A stretch of DNA of 64,000 nt, taken from positions 224,001 through 288,000 of the forward strand of contig CAWIYV010000001.1 of assembly GCA_963840455.1 (NCBI GenBank), in the 5' to 3' direction. The position numbers and the translations under genes are program-made. Under the pieces are notes generated by a model, which searched no databases, was not told the origin of the DNA, and was given only the letters and a program-made list of their open reading frames with translations. This DNA comes from Nitrospirota bacterium (lineage in GTDB: Bacteria > Nitrospirota > UBA9217). Positions 27,241-60,551 of the stretch are shown here, piece by piece; position 1 is the first letter of the stretch, and the number at the start of each line of letters is the position of its first letter.

Positions 27241-27310
27241 TCACGCACCTCCCGCACTCTCACCTTTGTCCCTTTGTCCCCTTGTCACCGTGTCTCCCCG
27301 TCACCGCGTC
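27241..27310. repeat. Degenerate octamer tandem repeat at the murJ 3' end / ogt junction
   Basis: cctttgtc cctttgtc cccttgtc accgtgtc tccccgtc accgcgtc. Confidence 0.65.
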
Positions 27311-30640: not shown

Positions 30641-31168
30641 TTAAAATCCTTCCAACACCCTGCTCCGGAGGGTCCAGGCGATATCCTGGCTCGCCTTCTT
30701 GATGGCGGCTTCTTTGGCGATCTTGGTGACGGTGATATCGCCAATGGTCACCTTGTAGTCAGAGATAAACACTGCCTCGATACCGTTCTCTTTCCACAGG
30801 GTCTTCTTCGATCTGAGGTCGTCGAGGCTTGCGTCCACCACCAGACGGACCCGGTACTGCTGGGCAAAGGAGTCCGCCGTAAAGGACAGGGCCGTGACCT
30901 CGTACTTCACGACCTTCCCCCGCAGCACGAGATCAGCCGACTCCACGTCAGCTACCCGCAGCCTGCCATCGGCAATGAACTCGTCAGCGACCGCCTTGGT
31001 CAATTCCACATCGACGTAGGGCTCATTGGTATTGTTGATGAACCCGGGGACCGCGATGGTCTTCGTTCCCTCGGGGATCAGGAGCCCGGTCCCCGATATC
31101 CGGTAGCCGCAGGAGGACACAACGACAAGTGACGCGAACAGCATGACGATGATGGTCTTGTTCCGCAT
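30641..31168 (-). CDS. lptE: LPS assembly lipoprotein LptE
   Basis: Lipobox VSSCGY; position between leuS and holA. Confidence 0.88.
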   Translation of the reverse strand: MRNKTIIVMLFASLVVVSSCGYRISGTGLLIPEGTKTIAVPGFINNTNEPYVDVELTKAVADEFIADGRLRVADVESADLVLRGKVVKYEVTALSFTADSFAQQYRVRLVVDASLDDLRSKKTLWKENGIEAVFISDYKVTIGDITVTKIAKEAAIKKASQDIAWTLRSRVLEGF

Positions 31169-31193
31169 TCCACGCTCCGCACTCCGCATAAAT

Positions 31194-33668
31194 TTACACG
31201 ACTACGCTCACCAGTTTCCCCTGCACCACGATCACCTTCTTCGGCGTCTTCCCGGCAAGATGTTCCTTCACCTTGGGGTCGGCAAGTGCCGCGGTCTCGA
31301 TATCCTTGTCGGACGTGCCCGCAGGCAGCGTAAGCTTGCTCCGCACCTTGCCGTTCACCTGGACCACGATCGTTATCTCTGTTGCCACGATCGCTTCCGG
31401 ATCGTGGACAGGCCACCCTGCGTTCGCAATGCTGGTATCGTTGCCCAGCGCCTCCCAGAGCTCTTCTGCAAAATGCGGGGCAAAAGGCGCTATCAGCAGC
31501 GTCAGCGCATCAACGGCCGACCGGAGCACGGGAGCCTGTTTGTTGGGGCTGAACGATCCCGACGTATAGTCGTACATTTCGTTCACCATCTCCATGAGCG
31601 CGGCTATGGCCGTGTTGAAATGAAACTCCCGCTCGATGTCCTCGGTCACCTTCTTGATGGTCAGGTGGGTCTTGCGGTACAGGGGGTCGCCCTTCGACTC
31701 AGGACCGGCCGGTTTGACATTCCGGATGTCCTGACTGAACTTGTACACGATCGCCCAGATACGGTGGAGAAACCGGTATGCCCCATCCACGCCCTGGTCG
31801 TTCCATTCAAGGTCGCGCTCCGGCGGCGCGGCAAAGAGCGAGAAGAGGCGCGCCGTGTCGGCGCCGTACTTCGTGATGATGAAGTCCGGGTCAACTACGT
31901 TGCCCTTGGACTTGCTCATCTTGGCGCCGTCCTTGATCACCATGCCCTGGGTCAGGAGGTTCTGGAACGGCTCGTCACCGTCGAACAGGCCGAGGTCCCG
32001 GACCACCTTGGTGAAGAACCGCGCGTAGAGCAGGTGCAGGACCGCGTGCTCGATGCCGCCGATGTACTGGTCCACGCTCATCCAGTAGCCTGCCGCTTTC
32101 TTGTCGAAGGGCGCCAACCTGTGCTTCGGCGAGCAGTAGCGCAGAAAATACCACGACGAGTCCACGAAGGTGTCCATCGTGTCGGTCTCGCGGCGCGCTT
32201 TCCCTCCGCACGTCGGGCAGACGGTCTCCCGGAACACCCTTGATTCGGCCAGCGGGGAAAGCCCCTTGCCGGTGAACTCAATGTCCATGGGAAGCCGTAC
32301 GGGCAGGTCCTTCTCCGGCACCGGCACGGTGCCGCACGTTTCGCAATAGACGACCGGGATCGGCGTGCCCCAGTACCGCTGCCGCGAGATGCCCCAGTCG
32401 CGGAGCCGCCAGTTCACCGTGCGTTTGCCCATGTTCTTCTGCTCAACGTACTGGGCCACCGTGGCCTTGCCCTTGATATTCGGCGTCCCGTCAAAAGTCC
32501 CTGAACCGGCCATGTCACCTTCTTCTACGTACGCCTGCTTCATGGTCGCCGCATCAAGGTCCTTGTTCGCGTTCTGGATCACCACGCGGACCGGGAGGCC
32601 GTACTTCTTCGCGAACTCGAAGTCCCGCTGGTCGTGGGCCGGAACGGACATGATGGCGCCGGTGCCGTAGTCCATGAGCACGAAATTGCCGACCCAGACC
32701 GGGACCCTCTCGCTGTTGAGCGGATTGACGGCGTAGGCCCCGGTGAAGATGCCCTCTTTCTCCCGGCTCTCGTCCGTGCGCTCCGCCTTGTCCTCGCGCA
32801 TCACCCGCTGGCAGAAGGCGCGGACCTCCGCGGCCTGCGGCTTTCCTTGTATGAGGGTCTCTACCATGGGGTGCTCAGGCGCGATGCTCATGAACGTGAC
32901 GCCATACAGCGTGTCCGGCCGGGTCGTGAAGATCGTGAGCTTTTCGCCGGACCGCTCCACGATGAAGTCAACTTCCACGCCTATGGACTTCCCAATCCAG
33001 TTCCGCTGCATGGTGAGGACGCGCTCGGGCCATCCCGGGAGCTTGTCGCAGAATGCCAGCAGTTCCTCGGCATAGGCGGTGATCTTGAAGAACCACTGCT
33101 CCAGTTCGCGGTGCGTCACAACGGAACCGCAGCGCCAGCAATGGCCGTCCTCCACCTGCTCGTTGGCGAGCACCGTGTTGCACGACGGACACCAGTTCAC
33201 GTAGGAAAGCTTCTTATAGGCCAGGCCCTTCTCGAGCATTTTCAGGAAGAACCACTGGTTCCATCGGTAGTAGTCCTCGAGGCAGGTGGTCACTTCGCGG
33301 TCCCAGTCGTAGGAGAGGCCCATGCGCTTGAGCTGCTTGTCGCGCATGAAGGCGATATTCTCGAGGGTCCATTTCGAAGGATGAATGCCGTGTTTGATGG
33401 CCGCGTTCTCCGCCGGCAGGCCGAAGGAGTCCCAGCCCATGGGATGCAGCACGTTGAACCCGCGCATCCGCTTGTACCGCGACACCACGTCGCCGATCGA
33501 ATAGTTCCGCACGTGGCCCATGTGGATCCTGCCCGAGGGATAGGGGAACATCTCGAGGCAGTAGTACTTGGGTTTCGACGCGTCTTCCGCCACGGCGAAG
33601 GTCCGGCTCTCCGCCCACCGCTGCTGCCAGCGTTCTTCCACGTTCTTCGGATCATAACGCTCTTCCAA
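31194..33668 (-). CDS. leuS: Leucine-tRNA ligase
   Basis: [13 protein letters not shown] (HIGH) and KMSKS motifs; TTG start after SD GGAGG. Confidence 0.97.
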
Positions 33669-33681
33669 AAGTCCTCCAAAA

Positions 33682-33726
33682 CATTGCAAATTGCAAAGTG
33701 TAAATTGTGAATATCAAATTGAAAAT
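33682..33726. repeat. Heptamer repeat arm downstream of the four-helix-bundle gene
   Basis: attgcaa attgcaa agtgtaa attgtga atatcaa attgaaa; inverted relative to the arms at 34168-34464. Confidence 0.8.
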
Positions 33727-33752
33727 CTACTCTTCGTCAAGGTATTACAAAG

Positions 33753-34112
33753 CTATTTTTGCTTTTTGGCGGTAACGACTGACTTTGCAATGATATTGCT
33801 CAACTGACGGGTCTCGCCGATCATACTTGCGACGTTATGCTCCTTCATGATCTGTGCTTTATCGATCAGTCTGAGCCAAAATAGTGATTCGCGTAATTCT
33901 TTGAGAACGATCTGAAGCTTGTGAAGAAAATCCGCCCTGCTCTGAGCGCCTCGTGCTTCTTCGTAGTTCGCCCCTGACGACGTGCCCGAGCGTAACAGTT
34001 GGCCTGCGATCTCCCGCCCTGTTGCTGTCTTTCTCAGCAACGTGGTGATCCTCACGACTTCCGCCGCATACGATAAAAAGCGCTCTGAAAGCTGATCCGC
34101 CTTGCTATCCAT
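33753..34112 (-). CDS. Four-helix-bundle protein (TIGR02436 / 23S rRNA IVS-encoded / bAvd-like family)
   Basis: QLLRSGTSSGANYEEARGAQSRADFLHKLQIVLKELRESLFWL family signature. Confidence 0.93.
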   Translation of the reverse strand: MDSKADQLSERFLSYAAEVVRITTLLRKTATGREIAGQLLRSGTSSGANYEEARGAQSRADFLHKLQIVLKELRESLFWLRLIDKAQIMKEHNVASMIGETRQLSNIIAKSVVTAKKQK

Positions 34113-34126
34113 TTACCTTTTCCAAT

Positions 34127-34510
34127 GTGCAATTATGCACTCTCAATGCAGTTGTCAGGTTTCCTTCAAATTTTGTACTTTGCACTTTGCAATTTACCAT
34201 TTGCAATGCATTCGCCCTCACGATTTTACCCTGGTCTTTACGTACTGCTCGATGGTGCAATTATGCACTCTGCAATGCAGTTGTCAGGCTTCCTTCAAAT
34301 TTGCACTTTGCACTTTGCAATTTACCATTTGCAATGCATTCGCCCTCAGGATTTTACCCTGGTCTTTACGTACTGCTCGATGGTGCAATTATGCACTCTG
34401 CAATGCAGTTGTCAGGCTTCCTTCAAATTTGCACTTTGCACTTTGCAATTTACCATTTGCAATGCATTCGCCCTCAGGATCTTACCCTGCTTTTCACATA
34501 CTGCTCGATG
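34127..34510. repeat. Three tandem 128-bp repeats, each containing a heptamer arm
   Basis: Units start gtgcaattatgcac at 34127, 34255 and 34383; near identical. Confidence 0.95.
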
Positions 34511-34588
34511 ATGACTCACTCCGCACCGAGCATGCGCTGCGCGTCGCTCCGCTCACGTGACCCGACGGCCGGCGCCCGACGCAGGATG

Positions 34589-57870: not shown

Positions 57871-60551
57871 CTAGACGACGCCCTCCGCCTTTTTCTTGAG
57901 TTCGGATAGTTTATTCATTGCCTCGATAGGCGTCATGGCGTTCAGGTCCATCTCGGCCATTTCCCGGACAAGGTTTGCGTCCCGCGCCGCGAACAAGCCT
58001 AGTTGCTGCTCTTTCGCCGCGTCTCCGCGTCTCCGCGTCTCCGCGTCGGCACTTTCCCCTTGTCCCCTCGTCTCCCTATCCCCTGCGTCCGCCTTTTGAC
58101 GCAGGCGTCGGTTCGCCGGTCTCATCGAACTCGGCCTTCTCGAGGTTCGCCAGCACCTCCCGGGCCCGCGCGATCACCACCGCAGGAAGCCCGGCGAGCC
58201 GCGCCACCTGGATGCCGTAGGACTTGTCCGCGCCGCCCTCGACGACCCTGCGGAGAAAGATGATCTGGTCGTTCCACTCCTTGATGGCCACGTTGAAGTT
58301 CTTCACCCGGTCCATGGTGAGCGCCAGGTCCGTGAGCTCGTGATAGTGCGTTGCGAAGAGCGTCCGCGCCCGGAGCTTCTCGTGGATGAACTCGGCGACC
58401 GCCCAGGCGATGCTGATGCCGTCGAAGGTGGAGGTCCCCCTGCCGATCTCGTCCAGGATGATGAGGCTCCGGTCCGTGGCGTTGTTCAGGATATTGGCGG
58501 TCTCGTTCATCTCCACCATGAAAGTGCTCTGGCCCCGGCTGATGAAGTCCGACGCGCCGACGCGTGTGAACACCCGGTCCACGATGCCGACCAAGGACTC
58601 CTTCGCCGGAACGAAGCTGCCCATCTGGGCCATGATGCTGATGAGCGCCACCTGGCGCATGTACGTGGACTTGCCCGCCATGTTCGGTCCCGTCAGGATC
58701 AGGAGCTGGTTGTCGCTGCTGTCCAGCAGCGTGTCGTTCGGCACGAACCGCTCCTCGGTGAGCTGTTCGATGACCGGATGGCGTCCCTCGACGATGCGCA
58801 GCACGTCCCCGTCGTCGATGACAGGACGGGTGTAGCTGTTCTTGGCCGCAGCCTCGGCGAGCGAGGCGAGGCAGTCGAGCGTTGCCAGCCGCCGGGCCAT
58901 GTCCTGGACGCGCACGGTCTGTGCCGCGACCTGCTCGCGGATCGCATTGAAAAGCCGGTACTCGAGGTCGAGGATCTTCTCCTCTGCGCCCAGCACCTTC
59001 TCCTCGTATTCCTTCAGCTCCGGCGTGATGTACCGCTCCGCGTTCGCCAGTGTCTGTTTCCGGATATAGTCCGGCGGTACATTCGCGAGGTTCGTCTTGG
59101 TCACCTCGATGTAGTAGCCGAAGACACGGTTGTAGCTCACGCGCAGGGAGCTGATGCCCGTCCGCTCGCGTTCGCGCTGCTCGATGCCGGCAATGAATCC
59201 CTTCCCTTCAGTGCTGATGGACCGGAGCTCATCGAGCTCTGCGCTGTGGCCTTTCTTGATCAGCTTTCCTTCTCGCAGCGTATACGGCGGGTCGTCATGG
59301 ATGGAGCGCTCGATGAGCTGATGGATGTCCTGCAGGTCGTCCCAGCCTTCGTGCACGGTCTTGAGCAGGCCGGCGGCGCTTGGCGCAATGAAGTTCCTGA
59401 GGTCCGGCAGGACGGTGAAGGACTGTCGCAGGGCAACAAGGTCCCGGGCATTGGCCACACCGAGGGAGACGCGGCTGATGAGCCGCTCCAGGTCGTATAC
59501 CCGTCCGAGATCGTTCCGGAGGCTCGAGCGCACCTGATGGCGCTCCTTGAGCTCGGCGACGGCAGTGAGGCGAGCATCGATCTCCTGAACATCGAGCAGC
59601 GGATTCAGGACCCATTCGCGCAGCTTGCGGCCCGCCATGGACGTGACCGTGTGGTCGAGGACGGACAGAAGCGTGCCCCGGATGGAGCCGTCGTAGATGT
59701 TCTTCACCAGCTCCAGGTTCCGCTGGCACGCGCTGTCCAGGACCATGTAGGACTGTACGAGGAAGGGCCTGACGCTCCGGATGTTCGCCAGCGCGGTCTT
59801 CTGGGTCTCTTCGATGTACCGAAGCGCCGCTCCCCCAGCGGAGACGCCGATGGTCATGTCCCCGCAGCCGAAGCCCTCGAGCGTCGAGGTCTTCAAATGG
59901 TCGAGCAGGGTCCGCTTCGCGGTCTCGCGGTCAAAGGTCCAGTCCTCGTAGGGATTGATCGCCTGGGTGTATTGACGAAGCAGCGCCAGAAGCTCTGATG
60001 CCGTCTCCTGCCCCTTCGGCAGAACGATTTCGCGAGGCGTGAATCGCGACAACAGGGTGTCGAGCTCTGCCAGGTTGCCGGCACCCGATACCTCTGCCAT
60101 GAAGAAATCACCGGTCGAGATGTCGAGGAACGCAGCGCCGAATCCCTCTTTCGCAGGATAGAGCGAGGCGAGATAGTTGTTGTCCTTGGCTTCTAAGAGA
60201 TTGGCATCGAGCACGGTGCCGGGCGTGACCACGCGGATGACCTCGCGCTTCACGATGCCCTTGGCGAGCTTCGGGTCCTCCACCTGCTCGCAGACCGCCA
60301 CCTTGAAGCCGCGCCTGATGAGCTTGGCGATGTAGCCTTCCACGGCGTGGTACGGGAACCCGCAGAGCGGCGTCTCGATGCCCTTGGACTTGTTCCGCGC
60401 CGTCAGCGTGATCTCCAGGACCTTCGAGGCCGTCACCGCGTCCTGGTCGAACATCTCGTAGAAGTCGCCCATGCGGAACAGCAGGATCGCGTCAAGGTGC
60501 TGGCGCTTGATCTCGCGGTATTGCTTCATGAAGGGGGTCAAGATCAGTCAT
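57871..60551 (-). CDS. mutS: DNA mismatch repair protein MutS, with apparent +1 frameshifts near 60542 and 58107
   Basis: GDFYEMF, TGPNMAGKS, STFMVEM, DEIGRGT; C-terminal QLGLF...LNAMTPIEA in the 57871..58125 frame; ATG at 60551 is out of frame by one base. Confidence 0.93.
58017..58047. repeat. Octamer tandem repeat inside the mutS C-terminal linker
   Basis: GACGCGGA x3 plus GACGCGGC on the minus strand. Confidence 0.85.

Follow-up and report, generated by a model that had tools for sequence, protein, structure and literature searches.

Substitution patterns among relatives show that a small four-helix-bundle gene immediately upstream of leuS, in the 64,000-nucleotide stretch of Nitrospirota DNA analysed here (the window; its genome is G000), is old at its site, has been inherited mostly vertically and is subject to strong purifying selection. 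The gene is enclosed by inverted arrays of a heptamer, and gene-less hairpins of heptamer-type units are dispersed through the genome. This corrects a simple "mobile cassette" picture: the gene stays at one essential operon and is conserved like LeuRS, while it is the hairpins that turn over. With moderate confidence, we interpret this as a two-part system acting in trans, comprising a resident four-helix specificity gene and a roving family of gene-less hairpins, and the evidence suggests that such a system would be a little-known form of selfish or domesticated DNA.

The gene (33753..34112, minus strand, as are the other features of the locus given below) codes for a protein of 119 aa with a pI of 10.0. 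It sits between a DUF4124-like gene, a label given on a weak Pfam match under the cut-off, and leuS, in the same orientation as both. The family assignment made in an earlier sequence-only reading was confirmed: profile searches placed the protein above the cut-offs of both TIGR02436 (77.1 bits against 24) and PF05635 (53.5 against 33.8), and the predicted structure (pLDDT 94.8) has the four long helices of 2RLD and 2GSC. The model aligns with 2RLD, which has five chains, at a TM score of 0.84, with Xcc0516 (2GSC) at 0.78 and with the Avd protein of diversity-generating retroelements (DGR; 4DWL) at 0.73, the last bearing out a suspected resemblance. No catalytic motif or domain was identified in the protein. 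Structures have been solved for PF05635, and we know of no function for the family. By analogy with the five chains of 2RLD and with Xcc0516, we infer that the 119-aa protein would form an Avd-like basic pentamer. Avd itself is described as a positively charged pentamer (PMC6182149), and in the reported DGR structure one RNA stem-loop is touched by each of the five protomers of Avd, some 40 angstrom away from the active site (10.1101/2023.10.23.563531).

The two inverted arrays of six heptamers that drew attention to the locus are real. The downstream arm (33682..33726 by repeat search; 33683-33726 in TRF, with period 7 and 6.3 copies) is pyrimidine-rich on the transcript strand. It is separated from the stop codon of the gene by a 26-nt spacer (33727..33752) that is absent from the orthologous cassettes of G002, G004, G005, G012 and G014. 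On its other side, the GGAGG ribosome-binding site of leuS (33673..33677) lies 4 nt beyond the arm, close to the 5 nt estimated earlier, and leuS (TIGR00396) starts with the TTG at 33668. The upstream arm of the sequence-only reading (approximately 34166..34208), recovered from repeat pairs, consists of six purine-rich heptamers inverted relative to the downstream arm. Nearer the gene, an inner heptamer run (34113..34147, also from repeat pairs) includes the gene's own purine-rich leader and reaches its ATG. Genome-wide, 54 arrays have an inverted partner, compared to none in a codon-shuffled genome. Elsewhere in the window, a run of about four AGTGCGG-type heptamers, of another family, lies at 31162-31188 between the leuS stop codon and the next gene, where it provides the first codons of the longest ORF; leuS is thus flanked by arms of two families. 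Tandem 8-mer runs resembling the arms of other four-helix clades are seen at 27263-27310, overlapping the final codons of a 530-aa gene that we take to be MurJ-like, and at 58017-58084.

Overlooked at first was the fact that 34127-34510 consists, in the assembled sequence, of three tandem 128-bp copies, as detected by repeat search; among the contigs of the sequencing runs none crosses the whole array, and the copy number is to that extent provisional. Each copy opens with the last codons of a deleted gene and carries the upstream arm: copy 1 (34383..34510) with its arm at 34426-34464, copy 2 (34255..34382) with its arm at 34298-34336, and copy 3 (34127..34254) with the gene tail at 34218-34254, the arm named above, a linker and a partial second arm. 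The locus thus has three upstream arms in addition to the inner run up to the start codon. The deleted gene, REC-PilZ, combines receiver and PilZ domains and is intact at the same place in relatives, by comparison with which the remnant in G000 comprises the last 13 codons and the stop (34474..34515); the deletion junction is crossed by a contig of run X3. Such a receiver-PilZ gene is present in most genomes of the family, and several other genera also lack it at the leuS site. Copy 2 has no change of its own: its first 33 nt are those of copy 3 and the remainder those of copy 1. The gain of the third copy is therefore either very recent or an artefact of assembly. A foreign-strain origin of the copy 2/3 tails (5 differences over 37 nt, none over 91; p 0.0016) was rejected in favour of the simpler chimeric copy 2, the share of silent changes (4/6) being suggestive at most. 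Likewise, the unit was rejected as a dispersed repeat, as the genome has it at this locus alone. The triplication is local damage, made up of arm-region duplications and deletion of the upstream gene, and stands outside the design of the cassette. A sigma-70-like consensus match (10/12, 16-nt spacer) in copy 1 (34388..34415) is repeated in copy 2 (34260-34287); with 4 matches in the scan against 1.3 expected, these consensus matches are a hint of possible promoters. One further DNA contig of run X3 matches 33669 and 34542 with unassigned sequence between them and may represent a relative with another occupant; we did not count it as an excision product.

The complementarity of the two arms exceeds chance, yet their pairing is partial in G000 and stronger in relatives. 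The arm-arm duplex has an energy of -24.3 kcal/mol compared to -15.9 +/- 3.1 for shuffles, with 6/500 shuffles equally good. However, the stem of about 43 bp that had been proposed gives way to a best ungapped register of 27 Watson-Crick pairs and one G-U pair in 37 nt, with a longest run of 10, and to a predicted duplex of about 20 bp with a 7-nt bulge. The TTGCAA core of the heptamer is a palindrome, because of which the upstream arm folds on itself (-8.8). Folding of the full 601-nt transcript, a check suggested by the sequence-only reading, went against a single stem: the minimum-energy structure lacks one (z -0.43). When the transcript contains all three copies, about 0 pairs with the downstream arm are expected for the upstream arm nearest the gene, against about 11 for the outermost copy; a single copy would give about 16 arm-arm pairs, and in five relatives the figure is 18-46. 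A search of Rfam gave no match in the cassette region.

We compared what lies upstream of leuS in G000 and 24 relatives, the full set of 25 family genomes. An intact cassette is found in seven, an internally deleted gene with both arms kept in two (G009 and G010), clear arm relics in two, single-heptamer traces in two, a run of another unit in one, a rearranged site in one and no heptamer in the remaining ten, so that leuS sites without the cassette do exist among relatives, as the sequence-only reading had proposed to look for. These states are scattered over a quick and poorly resolved LeuRS tree. The gene, present in one copy of its clade per genome, is syntenic at leuS across three genera. 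Against G002, G004, G005, G012 and G014 it shows a dN of 0.05-0.15 and a dS from 0.5 to saturated, and the first 622 codons of leuS give 0.08-0.13 and 0.7-1.2 for the same five genomes. Thus, with a dN/dS of about 0.1 and a divergence like that of leuS in six of the seven genomes with an intact cassette, the gene is old at its place upstream of leuS, and its conservation is strong. One genome departs from this, the sister species G003, whose LeuRS is 97% identical to that of G000 while the cassette protein is only 58% identical. A clade uniting the two cassette proteins is rejected (AU test, p 0.033), and on this tree evidence a different family member has replaced the leuS cassette in G003; the assembly has 8% contamination, and the flanking genes nevertheless match those of G000 at 96-97%.

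The route of loss is also evident from these genomes. Internally deleted genes and stranded arms are left behind, showing that the gene decays by internal deletion towards a gene-less hairpin, and no clean excision junction was seen on any contig; the contigs of X16, the one RNA run compared, leave the cassette uncovered. The leuS cassette is not a recent, cleanly excising mover, and the clean excision or bypass envisaged by the sequence-only reading is not borne out. Vertical synteny at leuS was one of the outcomes which that reading had set down as telling against it; another, a lack of repeat flanks at homologues, is contrary to what we found (see below). Two further states were observed at this site: in the cassette of G005 (L008) a hairpin with 9-mer arms is nested in the leader or upstream arm region, and in the leuS spacer of G001 (L012) the gene is lost and another repeat lies between decayed arms.

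Beyond the family, we gathered the 79 loci of the closest homologues, which come from many phyla and include archaea; 76 had usable flanks (five of these duplicating family genomes). Inverted arms with a score of at least 30 occur at 62/76, against 10/76 in direct orientation. In relatives, counting also weak and broken TIGR02436 loci, they occur at 52/85. The arm unit follows the protein clade (Mantel rho 0.53, with the best of 500 permutations at 0.13; 114 of 138 loci with detectable arms), and arm similarity is 0.33 in cross-phylum pairs at 45-55% protein identity but 0.04 in pairs from the same genome. These results show that gene and arms travel as a unit across phyla, as had been surmised for the window, and that each protein clade has its own repeat unit; G000 itself has five TIGR02436 loci with differing arms. 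Four long-branch weak TIGR02436 matches without inverted arms (L152, L159, L164 and L173) are possibly domains of larger host proteins. Over the 114 loci, the median arm length is 4.9 units upstream and 4.4 downstream, and 105 of the upstream arms are rich in purines. That the predicted five subunits are about as many as the units of an arm suggests, by analogy, that one heptamer might be bound per subunit; the TRAP and Hfq rings offer a parallel for one unit per subunit.

The genes around these cassettes are functionally unrelated housekeeping genes, as judged from 92 scanned ORFs out of 127 neighbours, 54 of them with a Pfam match at 1e-15. Where confirmed by Pfam, the upstream neighbour is co-oriented with the cassette in 29/29 cases (p 0.0015 at a background of 0.8) and the downstream neighbour in 20/25. 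The earlier idea of a cassette in housekeeping operons thus stands as regards its location in operon spacers; as a self-contained mover it does not, given the synteny and LeuRS-like divergence at leuS. No reverse transcriptase or transposase was found among the 54 matched neighbours. Two neighbours are tyrosine recombinases, presumably of the XerC type, next to hslV. In the open-licence texts of PMC and bioRxiv, with subscription papers outside the scope of the search, we found no paper describing this class of mRNA-spacer cassettes.

Gene-less inverted doublets are dispersed in extragenic space. G000 has 31 short heptamer-type ones spread over several unit families, 5-6 of them made of the window's heptamer, compared to none after shuffling, and many are present in G012. 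In the 10 family genomes where a gene of the clade persists, intact or truncated, the window's heptamer forms 3-220 three-unit arrays; the other 15 have 0-48 of them, with a median of 1 (Mann-Whitney p 0.0005). For a second unit family, the association of gene presence with array count has a p of 0.014. However, this association is confounded by general repeat load and kinship, because array counts in the two unit families go together (rho 0.61) and a p of 0.095 is obtained for the non-cognate control. There are also exceptions in both directions: G038 (294 matches), G029 (173), G018 (48) and G023 (32) are heptamer-rich with no close homologue found, while in G000, G003 and G019 the presence of a wider-clade gene goes with just 3-8 array matches. 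One gene-less element with a shared spacer, the single clearly multi-copy one, is present in 25 copies in G012 and 7 in G018 and in none of the other 39 genomes. It is a composite in which 9-mer arms lie outside heptamer arms and a small palindrome is conserved in the loop, and most examined copies are enclosed by outer 9-mer arms of the GxxExxY type. As a separate matter, an 86-112-bp repeat family forms tandem arrays on many contigs of G000 (e.g., C1:6574, C7:38990, C14:333142 and C14:541481), with one instance within a heptamer hairpin loop.

To follow individual slots, five of six fetched hairpin sites of G000 were compared with five congeners, which gave 19 alignable comparisons with families judged by eye (G005 was not alignable at the fifth site). 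The slot is held by the same family in 11/19, by another family in 8/19 and is empty in 0/19. Replacement is seen in 6/9 comparisons with G001 and G003, which have no gene of the G000 type, against 2/10 elsewhere, a small sample (Fisher p 0.07). For G003, the incoming hairpins correspond to the arms around a split four-helix gene of the same genome; for G002 and G005, they match those at the G005 locus L162. These comparisons show that hairpins fill the spacers between a stop codon and a ribosome-binding site and are swapped there for other families, several of the swapped-in families having their cognate genes in the same genome. By eye, no target-site duplication was evident at the examined sites, which among close relatives are replaced and never empty. 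That all gene-less hairpins are relics of cassettes at the same site was rejected, as most syntenic sites in G000 hold another family or nothing. In addition, a heptamer hairpin of G000 lies between two tRNA-like genes (L270, G000:C14:55897-55995), a place held by other families in G001 and G003.

As the sequence-only reading had noted, no transposase or reverse transcriptase adjoins the cassette. Our genome-wide search for transposition enzymes covered the Y1 and RVT_1 families, not DDE transposases: RVT_1 profiles found nothing in G000, G005, G012 or G029, and Y1 found two matches in G000, each with one stop and both away from the cassette. The GxxExxY nuclease is present in 21/25 family genomes, and in G000 its genes have their own inverted 9-mer arms and occupy slots shared with four-helix cassettes; it was not found in G029 and G038, both array-rich. 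Neither a reverse transcriptase nor GxxExxY is supported as a universal partner, since neither was found in G029 and GxxExxY was not found in G038; within these two families, no enzyme is common to the array-rich genomes. GxxExxY (PF13366) genes or pseudogenes within inverted 9-mer arms of G000 were noted at C9:141015, C14:178493, C4:158455, C7:125656, C14:500246 and C7:63009; at C7:62833-63412 a broken GxxExxY gene lies where G001, G002 and G006 hold a four-helix cassette.

Under the two-part reading, the leuS cassette would be the resident "master" copy, and the dispersed hairpins would be built of the same heptamer. The pentamer would recognise the purine-rich 5' arm through about five of its heptamers, and would most likely do so on the read-through transcript; the protein would act in trans as a specificity factor for which hairpins of its family are copied into spacers, overwriting the hairpin resident there. 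With no catalytic motif identified in the protein, cutting and copying must come from elsewhere, and a host or partner enzyme would supply both. We favour this reading because of the covariation of arms and clades, which candidate binding of the protein to its repeat would fit, the Avd/2RLD fold, the purifying selection, the array counts, the slot swaps, the replacement in G003 and the co-orientation with upstream genes. It is weakened by the want of a catalytic partner common to array-rich genomes, by the array-rich genomes without a close homologue and the array-poor ones with the gene, by the 25-copy element of G012, whose mostly 9-mer enclosure means that another system may have copied it, and by the facts that covariation can arise from co-inheritance alone and that the stem in G000 is weak. 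The more specific RNA-level version of the two-part reading is, in our estimate, rather doubtful.

Three other explanations deserve weighing. The four-helix gene might be cargo in hairpin units moved by the GxxExxY PD-(D/E)XK nuclease, an HUH transposase or recombination and slippage, its arms covarying by inheritance. The 9-mer arms and shared slots of GxxExxY genes in G000, the wide presence of that nuclease in the family, the outer 9-mer arms of the 25-copy element and the array-rich genomes without a close four-helix homologue would all suit such a passenger; yet no match to GxxExxY was found in the array-rich genomes G029 and G038, and pure cargo explains neither a dN/dS near 0.1 nor the keeping of the unit across phyla at about 50% protein identity, which makes this explanation unlikely. 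Purifying selection at the LeuRS level would be in keeping with a domesticated RNA regulator, in which the hairpins are signals for processing or stability of polycistronic mRNA (e.g., RNase III sites), shielded or laid open by the pentamer, with turnover incidental and any hairpin sufficient. The absence of empty slots at the five G000 sites and the location between stop codon and ribosome-binding site agree with it, and RNase III is reported to cut the related Coxiella stem (PMC4990558). We nevertheless consider it more unlikely still, in view of the family genomes with no heptamer at leuS, the 13/41 genomes without a TIGR02436 match, the many broken paralogues, the functionally unrelated neighbours and the many unit families side by side in one genome.

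Least likely of the three is a self-contained, self-moving intervening element precisely excised or bypassed at the RNA or ssDNA level. Its appeal lies in a design like that of the ORF-bearing 23S rRNA intervening sequence (IVS) of Coxiella, with a terminal stem and heptamers before the ORF (PMC4990558), in the sense orientation, in the replacement in G003 and in the 18-46 expected pairs of orthologous stems. However, the gene is single-copy and vertical at leuS, it is lost through internal deletion while the arms remain, and the protein has no catalytic domain; moreover, IVS are described as cut without ligation (10.1101/2024.02.27.582315), and a cut of that kind between the genes of an mRNA would break the transcript in two rather than bypass the gene.

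More broadly, and tentatively, since we think it somewhat likelier to be wrong than right, the two-part reading could extend to a widespread class of bacterial and archaeal replicators, in which a non-enzymatic Avd-like ring with about one heptamer per subunit sets the identity of a hairpin family, and rivals are overwritten in stop-to-start spacers. If true, such a class would explain together the prokaryotic excess of heptamers, the rRNA-IVS ORF and the origin of Avd. The clade-to-heptamer code predicts that each protein binds its own unit; in that case the family would hold a natural stock of small rings with sequence-specific recognition of nucleic acids, and it would represent a strategy for replicating intergenic DNA distinct from REP/RAYT.

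Among known repeats, the inverted GGGAATC heptamer pairs of Xanthomonas, reported as 70-75 convergent pairs per genome, and the Nostoc repeats (PMC4692102), as well as the TAACTGA repeats of Beggiatoaceae (PMC4679880), resemble the arms in being intergenic runs of about four units close to start codons. They differ in their units, and the parts of these sources dealing with them draw no link to the four-helix/S23 gene family; MacGregor 2015 makes no mention of a four-helix protein. The former source also describes heptamer repeats as over-represented in bacteria, with no explanation given in the part concerned (PMC4692102). Unlike in a MITE or classical IS, the gene enclosed by the arms is not a transposase. 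Another parallel is REPIN-RAYT, described as having a single-copy, mostly vertically conserved gene at a fixed site (for the cassette, with the exception of G003), extragenic doublets that are inverted and measure about 100 bp, more than one sequence group in a genome and a population tied to the gene (10.1101/2021.07.10.451892). In contrast, the cassette gene belongs to PF05635 and is no HUH (Y1)/tyrosine transposase, its arms are tandem 7-9-mers and not palindromic REPs, the four-helix gene also crosses phyla and domains, and the link of gene and population has exceptions.

With DGR Avd, the protein shares its fold and basic character, and the Avd pentamer is reported to bind an RNA stem-loop without doing chemistry (PMC6182149; 10.1101/2023.10.23.563531; PMC10053308); on the other hand, identity is 14%, and there is no RVT_1 reverse transcriptase near the cassette or in G000. 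The S23p IVS of Coxiella burnetii, as described, has in common with the cassette the protein family, an ORF looped out by a terminal stem, tandem heptamers right before the start codon and sense orientation in the host transcript (PMC4990558), and PF05635 ORFs are reported scattered in rRNA insertions of CPR bacteria (10.1101/2024.02.27.582315). The leuS cassette differs in lying in an mRNA spacer and not inside an rRNA gene, in pairing 28/37 positions where the Coxiella stem has 28 bp with one mismatch and a bulge, in an ORF under purifying selection where that of Coxiella is reported to be decaying (PMC4990558), and in being accompanied by dispersed gene-less hairpins. The cassette is a variant of a known design, one that fails the defining tests of IVS, REPIN-RAYT, DGR and MITE.
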